Origin: Escherichia phage 348Ecol098PP
Sequence record: OR062947.1
Reading direction: 5' to 3' (one strand)
DNA length: 64,000 nt
This document shows positions 445 through 60,190 of this stretch, one piece after another. The notes beneath the pieces are model-generated. The model was not told where the DNA came from and made no database searches. It saw only the letters and a list, made by a program, of their open reading frames with translations. Made by a program: the position numbers and the translations under genes. How positions within the stretch are numbered: the stretch's first letter is position 1; each line of letters starts with the position of its first letter.

Positions 445-1392
445 ATGACACGTTCACATTACATTGAATACTTTGCAGGTCTTATCGCTAACGCTCACGC
501 TCAACGTGCTACTGGTGCTTGGACTGATGTTCCACATAAAGGTGTGGTTTATAGTATTCTTCGTGATTTTCTTACATACACAGGCCAAGAAAATCATATC
601 TGTAAAGATACTCAAAATGCATATTCTCATTCATTAGGGACACTGCTTCAATGGTTCAAACGTTCTCGTTTATTATCTTCTACTGTAGCTCGCGATAACA
701 TTAAAAACTTTATGAAGCCGAGCTTTATTAAATCTGTGACATCTAAAACCGATTTGGTTGAATTCACTATTGTTAATGATGTTAAAAAGACTCATTTGGC
801 TGATTGGTTATCTACCATTCCTGAAACTAAATTTGCTGATAAATTTGCTTGTGAATTCAATAACCAAGTGAATATGCTTTTTAAACATTCTCGTAAATTA
901 TTCACAGGCGGCGATGATCGTACAAATACAGTTCATGCTAAAGATTGGGTTACTGCAGTGTTCAAACCAACCGGTAATGGTACCGCATCATTATCAATTG
1001 ATATTCAGGTTCCTTATTATTACTCACGTAATCTCGGCACCATGAAAGCTGAAGAAATTAAGAAGCACAATAAAACCATTCGTTCGTTGTCTTATAAACT
1101 TCGCATGATGTTAAGAATCATGGACGTGGTAGAAATGTATGATGAAACCGAAGATAACGGTTCAATGTTATACAGTTCTCGCATTCAAATTAAGTTGAAG
1201 AACCCTAACGAGTATAAGCCTAAGCCTATTAAAGAGCCTAAAGCAGAAAAAGTTGATAACTTAAGAGAAGAACGCGAATATCTCAAATCTCGTCTGAAAG
1301 AAGTCGAAGCCCAGATTGCAGAACAAACTAAATCGTTAAAAGCTCTGAATGCGAAAGCGGATGGTTTACGAAATGCCATTGAGGTGTTATAA
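445..1392 (+). CDS. hypothetical protein, 315 aa, K/E-rich coiled-coil C-terminus
   Basis: ORF track; RBS GAGAGGAAAA upstream; early promoter 387-416 upstream. Confidence 0.7.
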   Translation: MTRSHYIEYFAGLIANAHAQRATGAWTDVPHKGVVYSILRDFLTYTGQENHICKDTQNAYSHSLGTLLQWFKRSRLLSSTVARDNIKNFMKPSFIKSVTSKTDLVEFTIVNDVKKTHLADWLSTIPETKFADKFACEFNNQVNMLFKHSRKLFTGGDDRTNTVHAKDWVTAVFKPTGNGTASLSIDIQVPYYYSRNLGTMKAEEIKKHNKTIRSLSYKLRMMLRIMDVVEMYDETEDNGSMLYSSRIQIKLKNPNEYKPKPIKEPKAEKVDNLREEREYLKSRLKEVEAQIAEQTKSLKALNAKADGLRNAIEVL

Positions 1393-1697
1393 TGAAACTA
1401 CGTCTTTTAGAGGATATTGATATGAACACTAATCACCGCTTGGTTAAGTTTATTGACGATAGTTCAAAGATTGAATTTGTTCAGCGAGATAAAATCCACG
1501 GTGAAGAAGAGTTCGTTCCTCCGGCATGGAACGAAATCATGAAAATGGTTGAACGACGTGAAAATGCTGCCAAATCGGCAGCAAAACATCCATGCCCGGA
1601 ATGTGGAACTATCCAAGTCCAACTGGTTAACTGGACCACTGATAACTTGAAATTGAAATGCCGTAAATGCTTCCACAAATTTGAGAGAACATTATAA
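1392..1697 (+). CDS. small zinc-ribbon protein (CPECG...CRKC)
   Basis: ORF track; ATGA overlap with upstream stop; four-Cys motif. Confidence 0.65.
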   Translation: MKLRLLEDIDMNTNHRLVKFIDDSSKIEFVQRDKIHGEEEFVPPAWNEIMKMVERRENAAKSAAKHPCPECGTIQVQLVNWTTDNLKLKCRKCFHKFERTL

Positions 1698-2110
1698 TGA
1701 GATATAGCCTTCGTTGTTTTATTGCAGCTTTAGTTTTTGCCATCATTCCATTCATTTGGAACAGCCAGAATACTTACATGGAAACTAAAGTAATTCCTGT
1801 GGAGGTAGTGGAATTAATCTCAGGCCAATCTACAGGAAAATATTCTAAATTAGAATTTATTGCAGTCTATAAAGATGAGCAAGGACGAGTTTTTGACAGG
1901 CGTGTATCACCGTCGTTTTATACGCTTCTGAATAAAGGTGATACGATAGCTATAGAAATTCGTGAGATGGATATCAAACAAACTACTAAAGATAACCTGA
2001 TTTGGTTCTTTGGTACGGTGTTGTTGGTTTCTATCTGTATCACAGGTTTTATTACATGTATTGTATTTGGCGTTGCATATTTAATCGATGAAAGGAAAAA
2101 TAATGTTTAA
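1697..2110 (+). CDS. membrane protein (two hydrophobic segments)
   Basis: ORF track; hydrophobic N- and C-terminal helices; translational coupling. Confidence 0.65.
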   Translation: MRYSLRCFIAALVFAIIPFIWNSQNTYMETKVIPVEVVELISGQSTGKYSKLEFIAVYKDEQGRVFDRRVSPSFYTLLNKGDTIAIEIREMDIKQTTKDNLIWFFGTVLLVSICITGFITCIVFGVAYLIDERKNNV

Positions 2111-2366
2111 AGTGTACGGGTATGACTCTACTATTCATAAATGCATTTATTGTGATAATGCGAAACGATTGCTGACTGTTAAGAAACAGCCATTCGAATT
2201 CATTAATGTTATGCCAGAAAAAGGTGTGTTCGACGATGAGAAAATTACTGAGCTTCTTGTTAAGCTTGGACGCGAATCACAAGTTGGATTGACTATGCCT
2301 CAAGTGTTTGCTCCTGACGGAAGTCACATTGGTGGATTTGATCAACTGCGAGAATATTTTAAATGA
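2103..2366 (+). CDS. nrdC: glutaredoxin/thioredoxin NrdC
   Basis: MFKVYGYDS...CIYC active site; near-identical in length and sequence pattern to T4 NrdC; ATG at 2103 chosen over ORF-track start 2088. Confidence 0.9.
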   Translation: MFKVYGYDSTIHKCIYCDNAKRLLTVKKQPFEFINVMPEKGVFDDEKITELLVKLGRESQVGLTMPQVFAPDGSHIGGFDQLREYFK

Positions 2367-2578
2367 TGCTTGAAGGAACTGATTATATCCATGACTACCG
2401 TGGAAACGCGGTATATGTAGGTGATGAAGTTGCAGTTTACTATGGGTATGGAACTTTGATGACAGCCAAGGTTATTCAAATTAAAAATAATCGTGCTAAA
2501 CTCGAAGTTTATTATTCTAATGGCGAAAAGTCTATTTCTAAATGGAAATACGGCGATTGCATTGTTAAACTGGGGTAA
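2363..2578 (+). CDS. hypothetical protein
   Basis: ORF track; ATGA overlap with nrdC stop. Confidence 0.55.
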   Translation: MMLEGTDYIHDYRGNAVYVGDEVAVYYGYGTLMTAKVIQIKNNRAKLEVYYSNGEKSISKWKYGDCIVKLG

Positions 2579-2580
2579 AT

Positions 2581-2751
2581 ATGATTTACGATATTAGTGC
2601 AGCAAGAGCTCCATCAATGGTTACTATTCCTGTTGAAGAATTAGATCGTCTTCAGAAAATTGAAGAGCTTCTTTGGGAAATTGAATCTGATTTGCCATCT
2701 GGGCTAGAATCCTGGGTTGATTATGAAGAGCTCAATAAGCTCCGCGGTTAA
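2581..2751 (+). CDS. hypothetical small acidic protein (56 aa)
   Basis: ATG at 2581 to TAA at 2749-2751, manually translated; below ORF-track size cutoff. Confidence 0.4.
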   Translation: MIYDISAARAPSMVTIPVEELDRLQKIEELLWEIESDLPSGLESWVDYEELNKLRG

Positions 2752-2879
2752 ACCATGGTATTCGGCTCGATGGGAGACGGTCGAGCCAGACGTCGAAACA
2801 GTTTACAACGACGAAGAAACGTGTTATGATGAACCTTCAATAAATGAATTAATTGATATGGAAATGGGAAGAGATTATT

Positions 2880-3050
2880 ATGCAAGTTAAATTATTATAC
2901 CGTTTATTAAAAAATGGCAAGCATGATTGGTATTTGCTTATTAAAACCGATCCGAATTTTTTCTCTGGACAACCATTTACAGTTCGTCCTACTAAACGTC
3001 AGCTTCGCAAAGCTAAACGTTCTCATCGAGACTTTTATAACGTTTACTAA
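2880..3050 (+). CDS. hypothetical small basic protein
   Basis: ATG 2880 with GGGAAGAG RBS; in frame with ORF-track ORF 2853..3050. Confidence 0.45.
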   Translation: MQVKLLYRLLKNGKHDWYLLIKTDPNFFSGQPFTVRPTKRQLRKAKRSHRDFYNVY

Positions 3051-3052
3051 AT

Positions 3053-3060
3053 TATAAATA
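3053..3060 (+). promoter_or_regulatory. late promoter core TATAAATA upstream of gene 49
   Basis: exact TATAAATA 30 nt upstream of the gene 49 ATG. Confidence 0.6.
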
Positions 3061-3083
3061 CCCTTATCTATTTAAGGTAAGGG
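3061..3083 (+). promoter_or_regulatory. RNA hairpin (CCCTTA / TAAGGG) overlapping the gene 49 Shine-Dalgarno
   Basis: 6-bp inverted repeat 3061-3066 / 3078-3083, right arm contains the AAGG RBS; late promoter would start transcription inside the left arm. Confidence 0.5.
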
Positions 3084-3089
3084 TTTATC

Positions 3090-3563
3090 ATGTTATTATC
3101 AGGCGCAAAATATAAAGAAGAAAAACAAAAATTTTATGATGCACAGAATGGTAAGTGTCCTATTTGCCACCGTGAATTAGACCCTGATGTTCAAGGTAAC
3201 CATCTTGACCACGACCATGAATTAAACGGGCCAAAAGCAGGTAGAGTTCGTGGGTTACTCTGTAATCTGTGCAATGCAGCAGAAGGTCAAATGAAGCATA
3301 AGTTCAACCGTTCCGGTCTTAAAAGACGTGATGTCGACTACCTCGAATGGCTTGAAGCTCTTCTTGCTTATTTGAAACAAGATTATTCTGATAATAATAT
3401 CCATCCTAATTTTGTTCCAGACAAAACTAAAGAGTTCTCAAGACTAGGTAAAGAGGAAATGATGTCCGAGATGCTTCAAAGAGGATTTGAATATAATGAA
3501 TCTGATACCAAAACACAATTAATAGCTTCATTCAAAAAGCAGCTTAGAAAGAGTTTAAAATGA
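3090..3563 (+). CDS. 49: endonuclease VII (Holliday junction resolvase)
   Basis: 157 aa; MLL.G..YKEEKQKFYDAQNGKC.IC.REL... HLDHDHELNGPKAG.VRGLLCNLCNAAEG matches T4 gp49 recalled from memory. Confidence 0.92.
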   Translation: MLLSGAKYKEEKQKFYDAQNGKCPICHRELDPDVQGNHLDHDHELNGPKAGRVRGLLCNLCNAAEGQMKHKFNRSGLKRRDVDYLEWLEALLAYLKQDYSDNNIHPNFVPDKTKEFSRLGKEEMMSEMLQRGFEYNESDTKTQLIASFKKQLRKSLK

Positions 3564-4381
3564 ATGTAGTATATAAACTATCATTTATTAATAGAATTAA
3601 TGCTAAAACCCCACCATATTATTACATTGGAAGTAAAACCAATTGCACTTTTGATGGAACGAATATTATTGATAAAAATGGTAAATTTTATTATTCGTCT
3701 TCGTCATCTTCCGAATTTCAAAAAGCCTTATTGAAAGAAACGCCGAAAGTTGAAATATTATATTTTCAATTAGTCGGAGATGAACAAATAACTAGCATTG
3801 AAGCTGAATTTCAAAAGAATATAGAAAAAGATGTATGGAATAAAGAGTATTTTAATTTAGCATATGCTGATGGCAAATTTACGACATATGGTATTTCTCC
3901 TTCTAAAGAAACTAGAGAAAAACAATCAATAACCATGATTAAAAGAAATCGTAATAAAGGCAAAAATCATGGATTTTATGGAAAGCATCATACTAATTTA
4001 GCCAGAAAGAAAATATCAGAAGCTTCTAAAAAATACTGGAAAGAAAATCCGCATCGTGGATTTTCGCATACAAAGGAAGCTAAAATTAAAATTGGAATTT
4101 CATCTTCTATCAGGCATAAAGGAAGTGGAAATCCGATGTATGGTGTAAAACCTTGGAAAACTCCGAACGCAATTAAATCTGGTACTTGTATATTATGGTT
4201 AAAATACGCAGAAATTTTATATGATTATTTAGGTCCAGATTTTAAAAGTAAATCATCTATTTTTGCGGATTTAAACTTACCGAAATTTAGAATTGATAAT
4301 TTCATCAAAAGGTTTAAAATGGGTTGGAACCCATATTTAGACGAAGAATTTCAAAAGGATAAATTAGAATTATGTCTTTAG
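3560..4381 (+). CDS. freestanding homing endonuclease-like protein (GIY-YIG-like N-terminus, NUMOD-like repeats)
   Basis: VYKLSF...YYIGSKTN near N-terminus; repeated GKNHGFYGKHHT / GSGNPMYGVKPW modules; sits between 49 and nrdD. Confidence 0.6.
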   Translation: MNVVYKLSFINRINAKTPPYYYIGSKTNCTFDGTNIIDKNGKFYYSSSSSSEFQKALLKETPKVEILYFQLVGDEQITSIEAEFQKNIEKDVWNKEYFNLAYADGKFTTYGISPSKETREKQSITMIKRNRNKGKNHGFYGKHHTNLARKKISEASKKYWKENPHRGFSHTKEAKIKIGISSSIRHKGSGNPMYGVKPWKTPNAIKSGTCILWLKYAEILYDYLGPDFKSKSSIFADLNLPKFRIDNFIKRFKMGWNPYLDEEFQKDKLELCL

Positions 4382-43864: not shown

Positions 43865-44389
43865 ATGTTAGTTTACCGCGTAGAACGTAGTTTTTGTACT
43901 CAACGTGAATCATTACCAGGAATTGCTATCAAAGACGGTAAAGCCGTCAGAATTTGGGAAACCTCTTGGAATAAAGAACCTCGTTCGCCATACGGTTGGT
44001 CGGGCACCGACAACTCTGAAGAAACATGGGAGTTCCTTGATAAGCATGGAATACTCTCAGGTAACTTCTACCATCATGGCGACAACTATAATGTCCCTAA
44101 TCGTCCTACAGTAAATGAAGACAAACTCCTTGAACAAAATATCTTAAGATACTATAGAATTGATCACTCATTTGAATTGAGTGAAGATTGGGCCCAAGGG
44201 TTCTATTTTGGATTTGAAAGTGTTGACGCGGTTTATGCATGGTTTGATGACCAGGTGGATGTTGAACTCTTGAAAGCTAAAGGATACTACATCGCGGTCT
44301 ATGAAGCGCCTGATTTCATCCTCGGAAGTTGTCAATTAATGTTCAGACGTTCATTGGCAGAACAAGTTGATTTTATTTTGCTAAAATGA
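43865..44389 (+). CDS. hypothetical protein
   Basis: ATG 43865 with AGAGGAGAA RBS. Confidence 0.65.
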   Translation: MLVYRVERSFCTQRESLPGIAIKDGKAVRIWETSWNKEPRSPYGWSGTDNSEETWEFLDKHGILSGNFYHHGDNYNVPNRPTVNEDKLLEQNILRYYRIDHSFELSEDWAQGFYFGFESVDAVYAWFDDQVDVELLKAKGYYIAVYEAPDFILGSCQLMFRRSLAEQVDFILLK

Positions 44390-45757: not shown

Positions 45758-47575
45758 ATGATTAAAAATGAAATTAAGGTATTGTCAGATGTAGAACATA
45801 TTAAGAAACGTAGTGGTATGTATATTGGTTCTTCTGCTAAAGAAGCACATGAGCGTTTTTTGTTTGGTAAATATCAACAAGTTGAATATGTTCCTGGTCT
45901 GGTTAAATTAATCGATGAGATTATTGACAACTCGGTTGATGAAGCTATTCGTACATCATTTAAGTTTGCAAATAAAATTGATGTGCAAATTAAAAATAAT
46001 CAAGTTTCGGTGGAAGATAACGGACGTGGTATTCCTCAAGGTTTAGTTACCGACCAAACAGGTGAACAAATTCCTGGGCCTGTAGCAGCCTGGACTATTC
46101 CAAAGGCCGGTGGTAACTTTGGTGATGACTCTGAACGCAAGACTGGTGGTATGAACGGCGTCGGGAGTAGTTTAACTAATATCTTCTCTACGTTGTTTAC
46201 AGGCATCACGTCAGATGGCGAAAATGAAATCACTGTTAACTGTTCAAACGGAATGGAAAACAAATCATGGTCTTCTAAGAAATCTAAAGGTAAAGGCACT
46301 AAAGTAATCTTCACTCCTGATTTCACTTCATTTGAAGAGCATAATTTATCTCAAATTTATTTAGATATTACTTTAGACCGACTTCAAACATTGGCAGTCG
46401 TTTATCCTGATATCAAGTTCACATTTAATGGTAAAAAGGTTGATGGTAATTTTAAACGATTTGCTAAACAATTTGGTGAAGATAACATCATTCAAGAAAA
46501 TGATAAAGTCTCTATAGCATTCACAACATCACCAGATGGCTTCCGTCATTTAACTTATGTGAATAACATCCATACTAAAAATGGTGGCCATCATGTTGAA
46601 TGTGTAATGGATGATATCTGCGAACATCTTTTGCCCGGTATTAAAAAGAAATATAAGGGTATTGAAGTCACTAAAGCTCGTGTTAAAGAATGCCTCACAA
46701 TGTTGATGTTTATTAGAGACATGAGCAACATGCGTTTTGATTCTCAGACTAAAGAACGTTTAACGTCAACGTATGGTGATATTCGTAATCATATCCAATT
46801 AGATGCTAAGAAAATTGCTCAGGCACTTCTTAAAAACGAAGCCTTGATTATGCCTATTGTTGAAGCCGCATTAGCTCGTAAATTGGCGGCAGAAAAGGCT
46901 GCAGAAACTAAAGCAGCTAAAAAGGCAACTAAAGCTAAGGTTCATAAACATATTAAAGCTAACCAATGTGGTAAAGATGCAGATACGACATTGTTCTTAA
47001 CAGAAGGTGATTCTGCAATTGGTTATCTCATTGATGTTCGTGACCGTGAACTACACGGCGGATTCCCATTACGTGGTAAGGTGATGAATAGCTGGGGTAT
47101 GTCATATGCTGATATGATGAAGAACAAAGAGCTCTTTGATATCTGTGCTATCACGGGTCTTATTCTTGGTGAAAAGGCAGAGAATACGAACTATCGTAAT
47201 ATTGCAATTATGACCGATGCCGATCATGACGGTCTTGGAAGTATCTATCCGGCTTTGCTTGCTTTCTTTAGTAATTGGCCTGAATTGTTTGAACAAGGAC
47301 GTATTCGCTTTGTTAAAACACCTGTAATTATTGCACAAATTGGCAAAGCTCAAAAATGGTTTTATACTGTAGCTGAGTATGAAGAAGTTAAAGATACACT
47401 GCCTAAGCATAGTATTCGATACATCAAGGGATTAGGCTCCCTTGAAAAGTCAGAATATCGTGAAATGATTCAGAACCCTGTGTACGACGTAGTTAAACTT
47501 CCTGAAAATTGGAAAGAACTCTTTGAAATGTTGATGGGTGATGATTCAGAACTTCGTAAAGAATGGATGTCCTAA
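45758..47575 (+). CDS. 39: DNA topoisomerase II large subunit (GyrB-like), single 605-aa ORF corresponding to fused T4 39+60
   Basis: GHKL ATPase N-terminus; TOPRIM region in the same ORF; no interruption. Confidence 0.92.
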   Translation: MIKNEIKVLSDVEHIKKRSGMYIGSSAKEAHERFLFGKYQQVEYVPGLVKLIDEIIDNSVDEAIRTSFKFANKIDVQIKNNQVSVEDNGRGIPQGLVTDQTGEQIPGPVAAWTIPKAGGNFGDDSERKTGGMNGVGSSLTNIFSTLFTGITSDGENEITVNCSNGMENKSWSSKKSKGKGTKVIFTPDFTSFEEHNLSQIYLDITLDRLQTLAVVYPDIKFTFNGKKVDGNFKRFAKQFGEDNIIQENDKVSIAFTTSPDGFRHLTYVNNIHTKNGGHHVECVMDDICEHLLPGIKKKYKGIEVTKARVKECLTMLMFIRDMSNMRFDSQTKERLTSTYGDIRNHIQLDAKKIAQALLKNEALIMPIVEAALARKLAAEKAAETKAAKKATKAKVHKHIKANQCGKDADTTLFLTEGDSAIGYLIDVRDRELHGGFPLRGKVMNSWGMSYADMMKNKELFDICAITGLILGEKAENTNYRNIAIMTDADHDGLGSIYPALLAFFSNWPELFEQGRIRFVKTPVIIAQIGKAQKWFYTVAEYEEVKDTLPKHSIRYIKGLGSLEKSEYREMIQNPVYDVVKLPENWKELFEMLMGDDSELRKEWMS

Positions 47576-58969: not shown

Positions 58970-59629
58970 TTATTTAGCCCTTCCTAGTATTCGGACCGCT
59001 TGGTTGCATATAGCCGCTAAGCGATCTTCCTCAAGTATATTATTCCCCTTATACCAATACATCGTCACAGTTCCAGCATAGATGTTATCCAAATTAAAGT
59101 ATGGACAACTATACATATAAGAAAGTTCGGCAGTTTTAGATTTTGTAGGCAAAAATGCAAATTCTGATTTAGACGAGAAATGACGGCCACTTAAATGAAT
59201 TATATATTCATTGGCCGTTTTATCCACCGGGAACCCCCCAAGGGACTTTTCAGAAATTGTGCTAGGCAGTTTGCCTTCATAAGCTATAAGGTCGACGAAA
59301 TAATTTAAGTTTTTAGGTCTGAAAGAATACACAGCACTAAAATCTGCACCAGATGAGATATGAACTATTTGCAGTTGTTCTAGAGCCGCAGATTCAAAAC
59401 GTAAAGCTCGTTCTTTTTGGATTATTTCAGTATAAGTATCATACTTAGATCTTACATAATAATCCAGCAAAATACTTCCTTTGTACCATATTAGTGCCAT
59501 TAGGAACAAAAGAATAATTACCGCTACTCGGGACATTAAAACCTTTCCAGTAGCGTTATCTTTGAAAATACGATCTAGCAACCCAAATAGAATATCACTA
59601 GGCGAAAATGACACTTTTGGTGTTGCCAT
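58970..59629 (-). CDS. t: holin T
   Basis: 219 aa; SFSPSDILFG.LDR.FKDNATGKVL.SRVAV..LLF.MA..WY... matches T4 holin. Confidence 0.92.
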   Translation of the reverse strand: MATPKVSFSPSDILFGLLDRIFKDNATGKVLMSRVAVIILLFLMALIWYKGSILLDYYVRSKYDTYTEIIQKERALRFESAALEQLQIVHISSGADFSAVYSFRPKNLNYFVDLIAYEGKLPSTISEKSLGGFPVDKTANEYIIHLSGRHFSSKSEFAFLPTKSKTAELSYMYSCPYFNLDNIYAGTVTMYWYKGNNILEEDRLAAICNQAVRILGRAK

Positions 59630-59638
59630 AATACCTCC

Positions 59639-60190
59639 TTACTTAAAGATATTTATAATTCGTTTAACAAGTGATTTGCTTTCAAGGTCAGGGAATTTAG
59701 GGAATTCGCCGCCAAGATGTTCATGTTTTTCTAAAAGGGCAAAGAATTTTTTGAGCTCTTTAAATTTTCGTTTTTCTTCTCTATTAGCAACCTCTGCATC
59801 AATAAGAGAACTTAAAACGCTGAATAATTTATAGAGTTCATGAATTTTCTTATCACGTTGAACTACGCGTTTATATGCTTCATCTTCCTTCCACCCGTCG
59901 TCGGTCCAAATGTCAAATTCGCCAGGTTCTTCTGTAGTAACATTTTGAAGAGCACCTGGAGTGTCAATAACAATTTTTTGCTTATCATAAGTCCATACTG
60001 TTTTTCCACGATGGTCTTCAACGTATACCCATTCTTGTTCGCGTTCATCAAATACAACAGCATAGCCTTCTTTAGGGTCTAAAGGTTTTTTTGGTGTCGA
60101 ATGAGCCGGAAATCCTACGCCTTTTAATGGTTTATAATTTTCTTCTTTGTAAAATTCTTTTGTATCGAAATAAAAGTGATAAATTTTCAT
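59639..60190 (-). CDS. 38: tail-fibre assembly/adhesin protein gp38 (T4 type, 183 aa)
   Basis: MKIYH.YFDTKEFYKEENYKP.KG.G.PAHST.KKPL.PKEGYAVVFDER...FALLEKHEHLGGEFP matches T4 gp38. Confidence 0.85.
   Translation of the reverse strand: MKIYHFYFDTKEFYKEENYKPLKGVGFPAHSTPKKPLDPKEGYAVVFDEREQEWVYVEDHRGKTVWTYDKQKIVIDTPGALQNVTTEEPGEFDIWTDDGWKEDEAYKRVVQRDKKIHELYKLFSVLSSLIDAEVANREEKRKFKELKKFFALLEKHEHLGGEFPKFPDLESKSLVKRIINIFK
59650..59657 (-). promoter_or_regulatory. late promoter TATAAATA (minus strand) upstream of holin t
   Basis: TATTTATA on + strand = TATAAATA on minus, 21 nt upstream of t start. Confidence 0.55.

Follow-up and report, generated by a model that had tools for sequence, protein, structure and literature searches.

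Does gene 49, which encodes recombination endonuclease VII, carry in Escherichia phage 348Ecol098PP a late promoter set into a hairpin that masks the gene's own ribosome binding site (RBS)? The first-pass annotation of a stretch of 64,000 nucleotides from this phage (record OR062947.1; hereafter the window) had proposed such an arrangement from the letters alone, and we followed it up computationally. The ORF downstream of the presumed element contains the Pfam domains PF02945 Endonuclease_7 (5.5e-20) and PF09124 Endonuc-dimeris, T4 endonuclease VII dimerisation (1.1e-31), its product shares 88% of its amino acids with T4 gp49, and the gene order nrdC ... 49 - nrdD - nrdG is shared with T4. 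Judged by sequence, this gene is the orthologue of T4 gene 49. The nearest public genomes are those of Mosigvirus and Tequatrovirus phages, whose annotation names the ORF endonuclease VII (gene 49), and the window is a Mosigvirus-like T4 relative.

The leader reads ...TAAAT-TATAAATA-CCCTTATCT-ATTTA-AGGTAAGGG-TTTATC-ATG, and its elements are collected in Table 1 together with the upstream genes. A check of the sequence showed that the positions previously assigned to the box (3053-3060) and to the repeats CCCTTA (3061-3066) and TAAGGG (3078-3083) were all correct. The inverted repeat as such was recovered too, but as a larger structure. In place of a 6-bp stem around an 11-nt loop, RNAfold and the repeat finder agree on a 10-bp helix, including one U-G pair, between 3060-3069 and 3075-3084, closed by a 5-nt loop, with a centroid energy of about -12.9 kcal/mol (RNAfold). 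According to both programs its right arm does hold the gene 49 Shine-Dalgarno (SD), as had been claimed, with AAGGG at 3079-3083 lying inside 3075-3084. The corresponding AGGG of phage 107 (OQ599309) carries an annotation as ribosome binding site. Another AAGG, at 3074-3077 and 12 nt 5′ of the AUG, is by its spacing probably too distant from the start codon for an SD role.

Table 1. Gene 49 leader and upstream genes in the window
Feature	Position	Strand	Basis
Packed same-strand upstream genes, stops/starts abutting or overlapping	445-3050	+	ORFs
nrdC-like thioredoxin	2088-2366	+	ORF
DUF7279 ORF	2880-3050	+	ORF
Late promoter box TATAAATA, T4-type, gp55-read, positions -13 to -6	3053-3060	+	sequence; geometry PMC1524935
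Helix 5′ arm ACCCUUAUCU; 3060-3065 upstream of predicted late +1, missing from late RNA	3060-3069	+	RNAfold, repeat finder
Predicted late +1, A, ±1 nt	3066	+	inferred from -13 to -6 rule
Hairpin loop AUUUA, 5 nt	3070-3074	+	RNAfold
Helix 3′ arm AGGUAAGGGU, carries Shine-Dalgarno	3075-3084	+	RNAfold, repeat finder, covariation
Likely Shine-Dalgarno AAGGG, 6 nt 5′ of AUG	3079-3083	+	sequence
Gene 49, recombination endonuclease VII, 157 aa, ATG 3090-3092	3090-3563	+	ORF, Pfam

The T4 gene 49 leader is identical to that of the window over 35 nt, from ATAAATA through the base before the ATG, and thus has the same 10-bp helix, loop and SD in the same place directly 5′ of gene 49. The box differs, being AATAAATA in T4 and a perfect TATAAATA in the window: at -13 the window has T, where T4 and Mosigvirus relatives that contain pin, LF82-35 among them, have A. 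A instead of T at -13 occurs in 9/50 T4 late sites (PMC2988020). For T4, one passage of a review gives e, soc, 49 and I-TevI as genes with the SD and/or AUG hidden in a helix on long transcripts (PMC3014915), and a section of a review of T4 mobile elements describes the same mechanism for gene 49 (PMC2988022); in these portions, both reviews cite Barth et al. 1988 for gene 49. As sequestration at T4 gene 49 stands in these reviews and the leader is identical, the element was already known. No promoter features are annotated in the gene 49 region of AF158101 and NC_000866, and gp49 is absent from the main text of a time-resolved omics paper on T4. The late start of T4 gene 49 is expected near position 46879 of NC_000866, on the minus strand. 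In the primary study, Barth, Powell, Trupin and Mosig 1988 (Genetics 120:329), long early transcripts are reported to hide the first ribosome binding site. The suggestion that the classic T4 gene 49 control is kept here is supported by the 35-nt leader identity, the orthology of gp49 and the covarying stems of related leaders described below.

Other T4 genes show comparable layouts. In the passage of PMC3014915 devoted to gene e (lysozyme), early read-through RNA folds into an inhibitory helix whose 5′ strand is missing from late RNAs. Gene e differs from gene 49 in gene, sequence and the presence of two late promoters; its structure and a ~100-fold effect were shown experimentally. Similarly, the section of PMC2988022 on I-TevI describes an RBS sequestered on early/middle polycistronic RNA and freed when transcription starts from an embedded late (or middle) promoter. 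I-TevI is unrelated in gene and sequence, its hairpin has a further role in protecting intron splicing, and its promoter is overlapped by an operator.

Taken by itself, the hairpin is modestly unusual. Its z-score in an 81-nt context is only -2.0 (5/200 shuffles were equally good), about 1.1% of random 42-mers from the window reach -12.9 kcal/mol, and TATAAATA shows no enrichment in the window (4 observed vs 7.5 expected). The low z-score and the unenriched box would suit a functionless inverted repeat that happens to lie beside a chance TATAAATA in AT-rich DNA. Only one of the eight ATAAATA boxes in the window, namely that of gene 49, is followed by a hairpin at or below -12 kcal/mol. The opening cost of the gene 49 initiation region ranks 6 among 87 ORF starts in the window. 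No Rfam family matched the leader at its gathering score; two sub-threshold matches, both on the opposite strand, scored 22.9 bits vs a cutoff of 140 and 18.6 vs 46.

We obtained the evidence that decides this point from other T4-like leaders. Gene 49 loci were gathered from IMG/VR, by protein and then by protein alignment, giving a set of 48 distinct leaders from genomes of about 160-233 kb with gp49 identities of 41-97%. An xxTAAATA box is located shortly 5′ of the start codon in all 48, and in all 48 a structure burying the SD and/or the AUG follows the box or, in one case, encloses it. Throughout the set, the spacing between the end of the TAAATA core and the ATG is short and similar, and TAAAT is invariant in the 28/28 leaders that were aligned. 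Stems are wholly different between lineages, as illustrated by CCCUUAUCU/AGGUAAGGG, GGUUCAUCU/AGGUGAACC, CUCUUAUCU/AGGUAAGAG, GAGUCAU/AUGACUC, CUAUCAUCU/AGGUGAUAG, CCCAUAUC/GAUAUGGG and AUAUCAAAG/CUUUGAUAU, and the upstream flanks have no visible similarity from one lineage to another.

Covariation was computed on a MAFFT alignment of the 28 distinct leaders. Paired cells reached 90%, vs 36-48% when the partner was slid by 1-3 columns, and double-sided changes were found in 5/10 helix pairs. Compensatory cells numbered 54 vs 17±4 in shuffles, with 0/500 shuffles reaching the observed value. RNAalifold independently found the pairs 9-39, 10-38, 11-37 and 13-35, with compensatory changes in 10-15 sequences at each. 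Four of the 28 leaders (L038, L039, L040 and L046) were placed out of register by MAFFT and kept so in the counts; since these count against the structure, the covariation figures are conservative. Shared ancestry among related leaders makes the shuffle statistics overstate independence. With the layout of box, masking structure and SD/AUG kept in 48/48 homologous leaders despite dissimilar upstream flanks, and with covarying stems, a chance origin was rejected and we regard it as extremely improbable.

The box itself follows the lineage. In leaders L042-L045, from genomes of 220-233 kb, it reads (A/G)CTAAATA, which is the reported late-promoter consensus of Aeromonas phage Aeh1 (PMC2988020, PMC1524935). 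The gene 49 box tracks the late-promoter consensus of its own lineage. The leader in which the structure encloses the box, L106 (IMGVR_UViG_2974770551_000001), carries an anti-SD CCTCCAA about 40 nt 5′ of the gene 49 ATG and upstream of its TATAAATA box; this anti-SD pairs with TTGGAGG downstream of the box, so that the late promoter falls in the hairpin loop and not in the 5′ arm. On this predicted fold, L106 would preserve the switch logic in a different geometry.

How would transcription from the box change the leader? T4 late promoters consist of an 8-bp box occupying -13 to -6 (PMC1524935), and +1 would therefore be at about A3066, within the left arm. The predicted late RNA loses 6/10 left-arm bases (3060-3065), so the claim that late transcripts would lack the left arm would hold for these six, but not for the four apical bases (3066-3069). 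The latter stay in the RNA and could pair weakly with 3075-3078, leaving AAGGG free. An RNA beginning at 3067 folds at only -1.5 kcal/mol vs -12.9 for the helix. We calculated opening costs by partition function. For long RNAs with 5′ ends at 2900, 2990, 3030 or 3053, opening costs were about 9.0 kcal/mol for the SD and about 13-14 kcal/mol from SD to AUG. For late RNAs with 5′ ends at 3065-3068, they were 1.5-1.8 and about 2.3 kcal/mol, respectively. The difference holds at each 5′ end tested. Together with covariation, the computed SD-to-AUG costs (13-14 vs 2.3 kcal/mol) agree with the earlier proposal of an RBS masked in long RNA and freed in late RNA. Across the 48 leaders, opening of the initiation region was calculated at 7.9-22.3 kcal/mol in long RNA vs 1.8-6.3 in the predicted late RNA, the difference being at least 5.2 with a median of 10.8 kcal/mol.

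A hairpin at this junction could also act mainly as a rho-independent terminator or attenuator ending the upstream early unit (pin, DUF7279 gene), gene 49 being then expressed from the late promoter only. Its 10-bp stem has 4 G-C pairs and is followed by a U-rich stretch, and hairpin plus UUUAUCAUGUUAUU resembles a weak intrinsic terminator. The same hairpin is annotated in DalCa (L048, NC_054908, 313-335) as 'rho-independent terminator; discovered using MFOLD', and the records of G2285, Lutter, GiZh and G29 have a 'terminator' feature beneath the match. However, the terminator scan of the window did not flag the gene 49 hairpin. In the tail TTATCATG, T occupies 4/8 bases after the stem and the U run stops at 3, while tails of distant homologues contain 2-5 T, form no run and often begin with G or C. 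What is conserved instead of a U-tract is the SD/AUG within the helix and the abutting late box. In addition, complete termination at the hairpin would sever nrdD and nrdG, both located further downstream in the same orientation, from upstream transcription. In T4, early transcripts are said by Barth et al. to reach into gene 49. With a negative scan, a weak and unconserved U-tract and SD/AUG pairing that is always kept, termination as the main function was rejected and is in our opinion very unlikely. The 'terminator' annotations of the gene 49 hairpin in several GenBank records are, on this sequence evidence, probably wrong or incomplete.

Stable hairpins at the end of cistrons can block 3′ exonucleases, and the primary T4 paper reportedly mentions a possible cleavage of early transcripts at the hairpin. 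The structure might then be an RNA processing or stability element, for example an RNase target or a protector of the 3′ end of the upstream message, for which translation control would be incidental. Against this, the helix of the window contains no GGAG RegB motif, and a stability element needs neither an SD in the 3′ arm nor a late box at the 5′ arm, both of which are kept in 48/48 leaders; we consider it highly improbable. A dual function, in which masking of the RBS is combined with a leaky terminator or a 3′-end stabiliser for the upstream early operon, is unlikely; if true, the hairpin would tune the early transcription that reaches gene 49, nrdD and nrdG. That the inverted repeat acts as DNA, as a substrate or sensor of endonuclease VII, is far less likely, its arms being short (10 bp) for a cruciform.

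The reading we favour, with a probability of roughly 0.85, is a switch that times the translation of endonuclease VII and is orthologous to that of T4 gene 49. In the window it is supported by the sequence elements, by the predicted helix with its covarying pairs and by the computed gap in accessibility between long and late RNA. The switch as a mechanism is inferred from orthology with T4, and with it an active promoter, a +1 at the predicted place, read-through from upstream and a response in translation. At early and middle times, transcription would reach gene 49 only at the far end of long polycistronic RNAs begun upstream. In these, pairing of 3060-3069 with 3075-3084 would bury AAGGG in the 10-bp helix, leading to poor binding of the 30S subunit. 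At late times, TATAAATA at 3053-3060 would be recognised as promoter by gp55/gp33-RNA polymerase, with a start at about A3066; without six of the ten left-arm bases the RNA could not form the helix, and full-length endonuclease VII would be translated.

The upstream region is compatible with such long RNAs. A sigma-70-like site with 11/12 matches is located at 388-416, and the terminator scan found no terminator-like site on the + strand from 547 to 3060. Given this and the dense gene packing between 445 and 3050, early read-through is plausible, and transcripts reading through at early and middle times presumably come from these genes. The region also includes, at 2581-2751 (+), a 56-aa ORF with a weak Pfam match to the phage T7 gp5.9 RecBCD inhibitor (E = 0.0025, 18.1 bits, cutoff 24.5).

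The window lacks the gene pin (about 426 bp), whose product inhibits the Lon protease of the host and which is found in T4 and Mosigvirus LF82-35 between the DUF7279 ORF and gene 49. The junction was compared between the window (3039-3060) and L002 (PV660461; 1680-1705 and 2118-2137). The DUF7279 ORF runs into the last bases matching the end of pin and stops 3 nt short of the late box. phiE142, SHSML-52-1 and JM17 share this pin-less junction. On the other side of gene 49, an ORF of 273 aa, homing-endonuclease-like and bearing a NUMOD3 motif, occupies 3560-4381 (+) between gene 49 and nrdD and overlaps the gene 49 stop codon (ATGA), whereas 49 and nrdD overlap directly in T4. A homing endonuclease is annotated between gene 49 and nrdD in JM17 and in Yersinia phage fPS-90 as well.

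The T4 scheme has a second half, the nested product gp49′. Barth et al. reportedly observed that the internal 12-kDa product is made alone early and that late transcripts permit both products. In the T4 annotation, gp49′ starts at an internal GTG, codon 53. The corresponding codon of the window is GTT (3246-3248), T4's nearby TTG is TTA here, and codon 53 in most of 40-odd relatives is GTT, GTC or ATT, none of them a start codon. Conservation of the T4 scheme, which had been suggested, therefore holds for its hairpin half and not for the 12-kDa product from an internal GUG, since codon 53 is GTT. Going by these codons, the nested-protein half is probably not general and specific to few T4-lineage phages. 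The gp49′ product accompanies the T4 switch, and the hairpin mechanism does not need it.

Other starts in the window also show high opening costs or boxes close to a start codon. On the - strand (59629-59657), a perfect TATAAATA at 59650-59657 lies 20 nt 5′ of the ATG of a 219-aa ORF, which we take to resemble T4 holin t. The region following this box, AAUAUCUUU, pairs weakly with the SD region AAGGAGGUAUU (-6.8 kcal/mol), and on this fold the leader could be a weak version of the promoter-in-hairpin layout. At about 60190 (- strand), the start of a 183-aa ORF downstream of a 1041-aa tail-fibre-like ORF has an opening cost of 14.1 kcal/mol. According to a passage of PMC3014915, T4 gene 38 has a hairpin between a distant SD and the AUG; the cost found at the 183-aa ORF fits this hairpin, genes 37/38 being assigned by position and size alone. 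The highest opening costs of the window, 18.1 and 17.9 kcal/mol, were obtained at 43865 (+) and 37765 (+), where the starts used are the first ATG and may be wrong.

Endonuclease VII cuts branched DNA and, as known from T4 biology, premature synthesis of the full-length enzyme would endanger the intermediates of recombination and replication on which the phage depends. Keeping its translation for late infection would fit its role in DNA packaging. For the window, the gene 49 switch is a T4 textbook element re-identified and brings nothing new. The comparison of leaders adds that a late box and a masking helix are kept before gene 49 down to ~41% protein identity while the stem sequence is fully turned over. 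This offers phylogenetic support, of modest value, for a mechanism that in the literature found rests on T4 alone.
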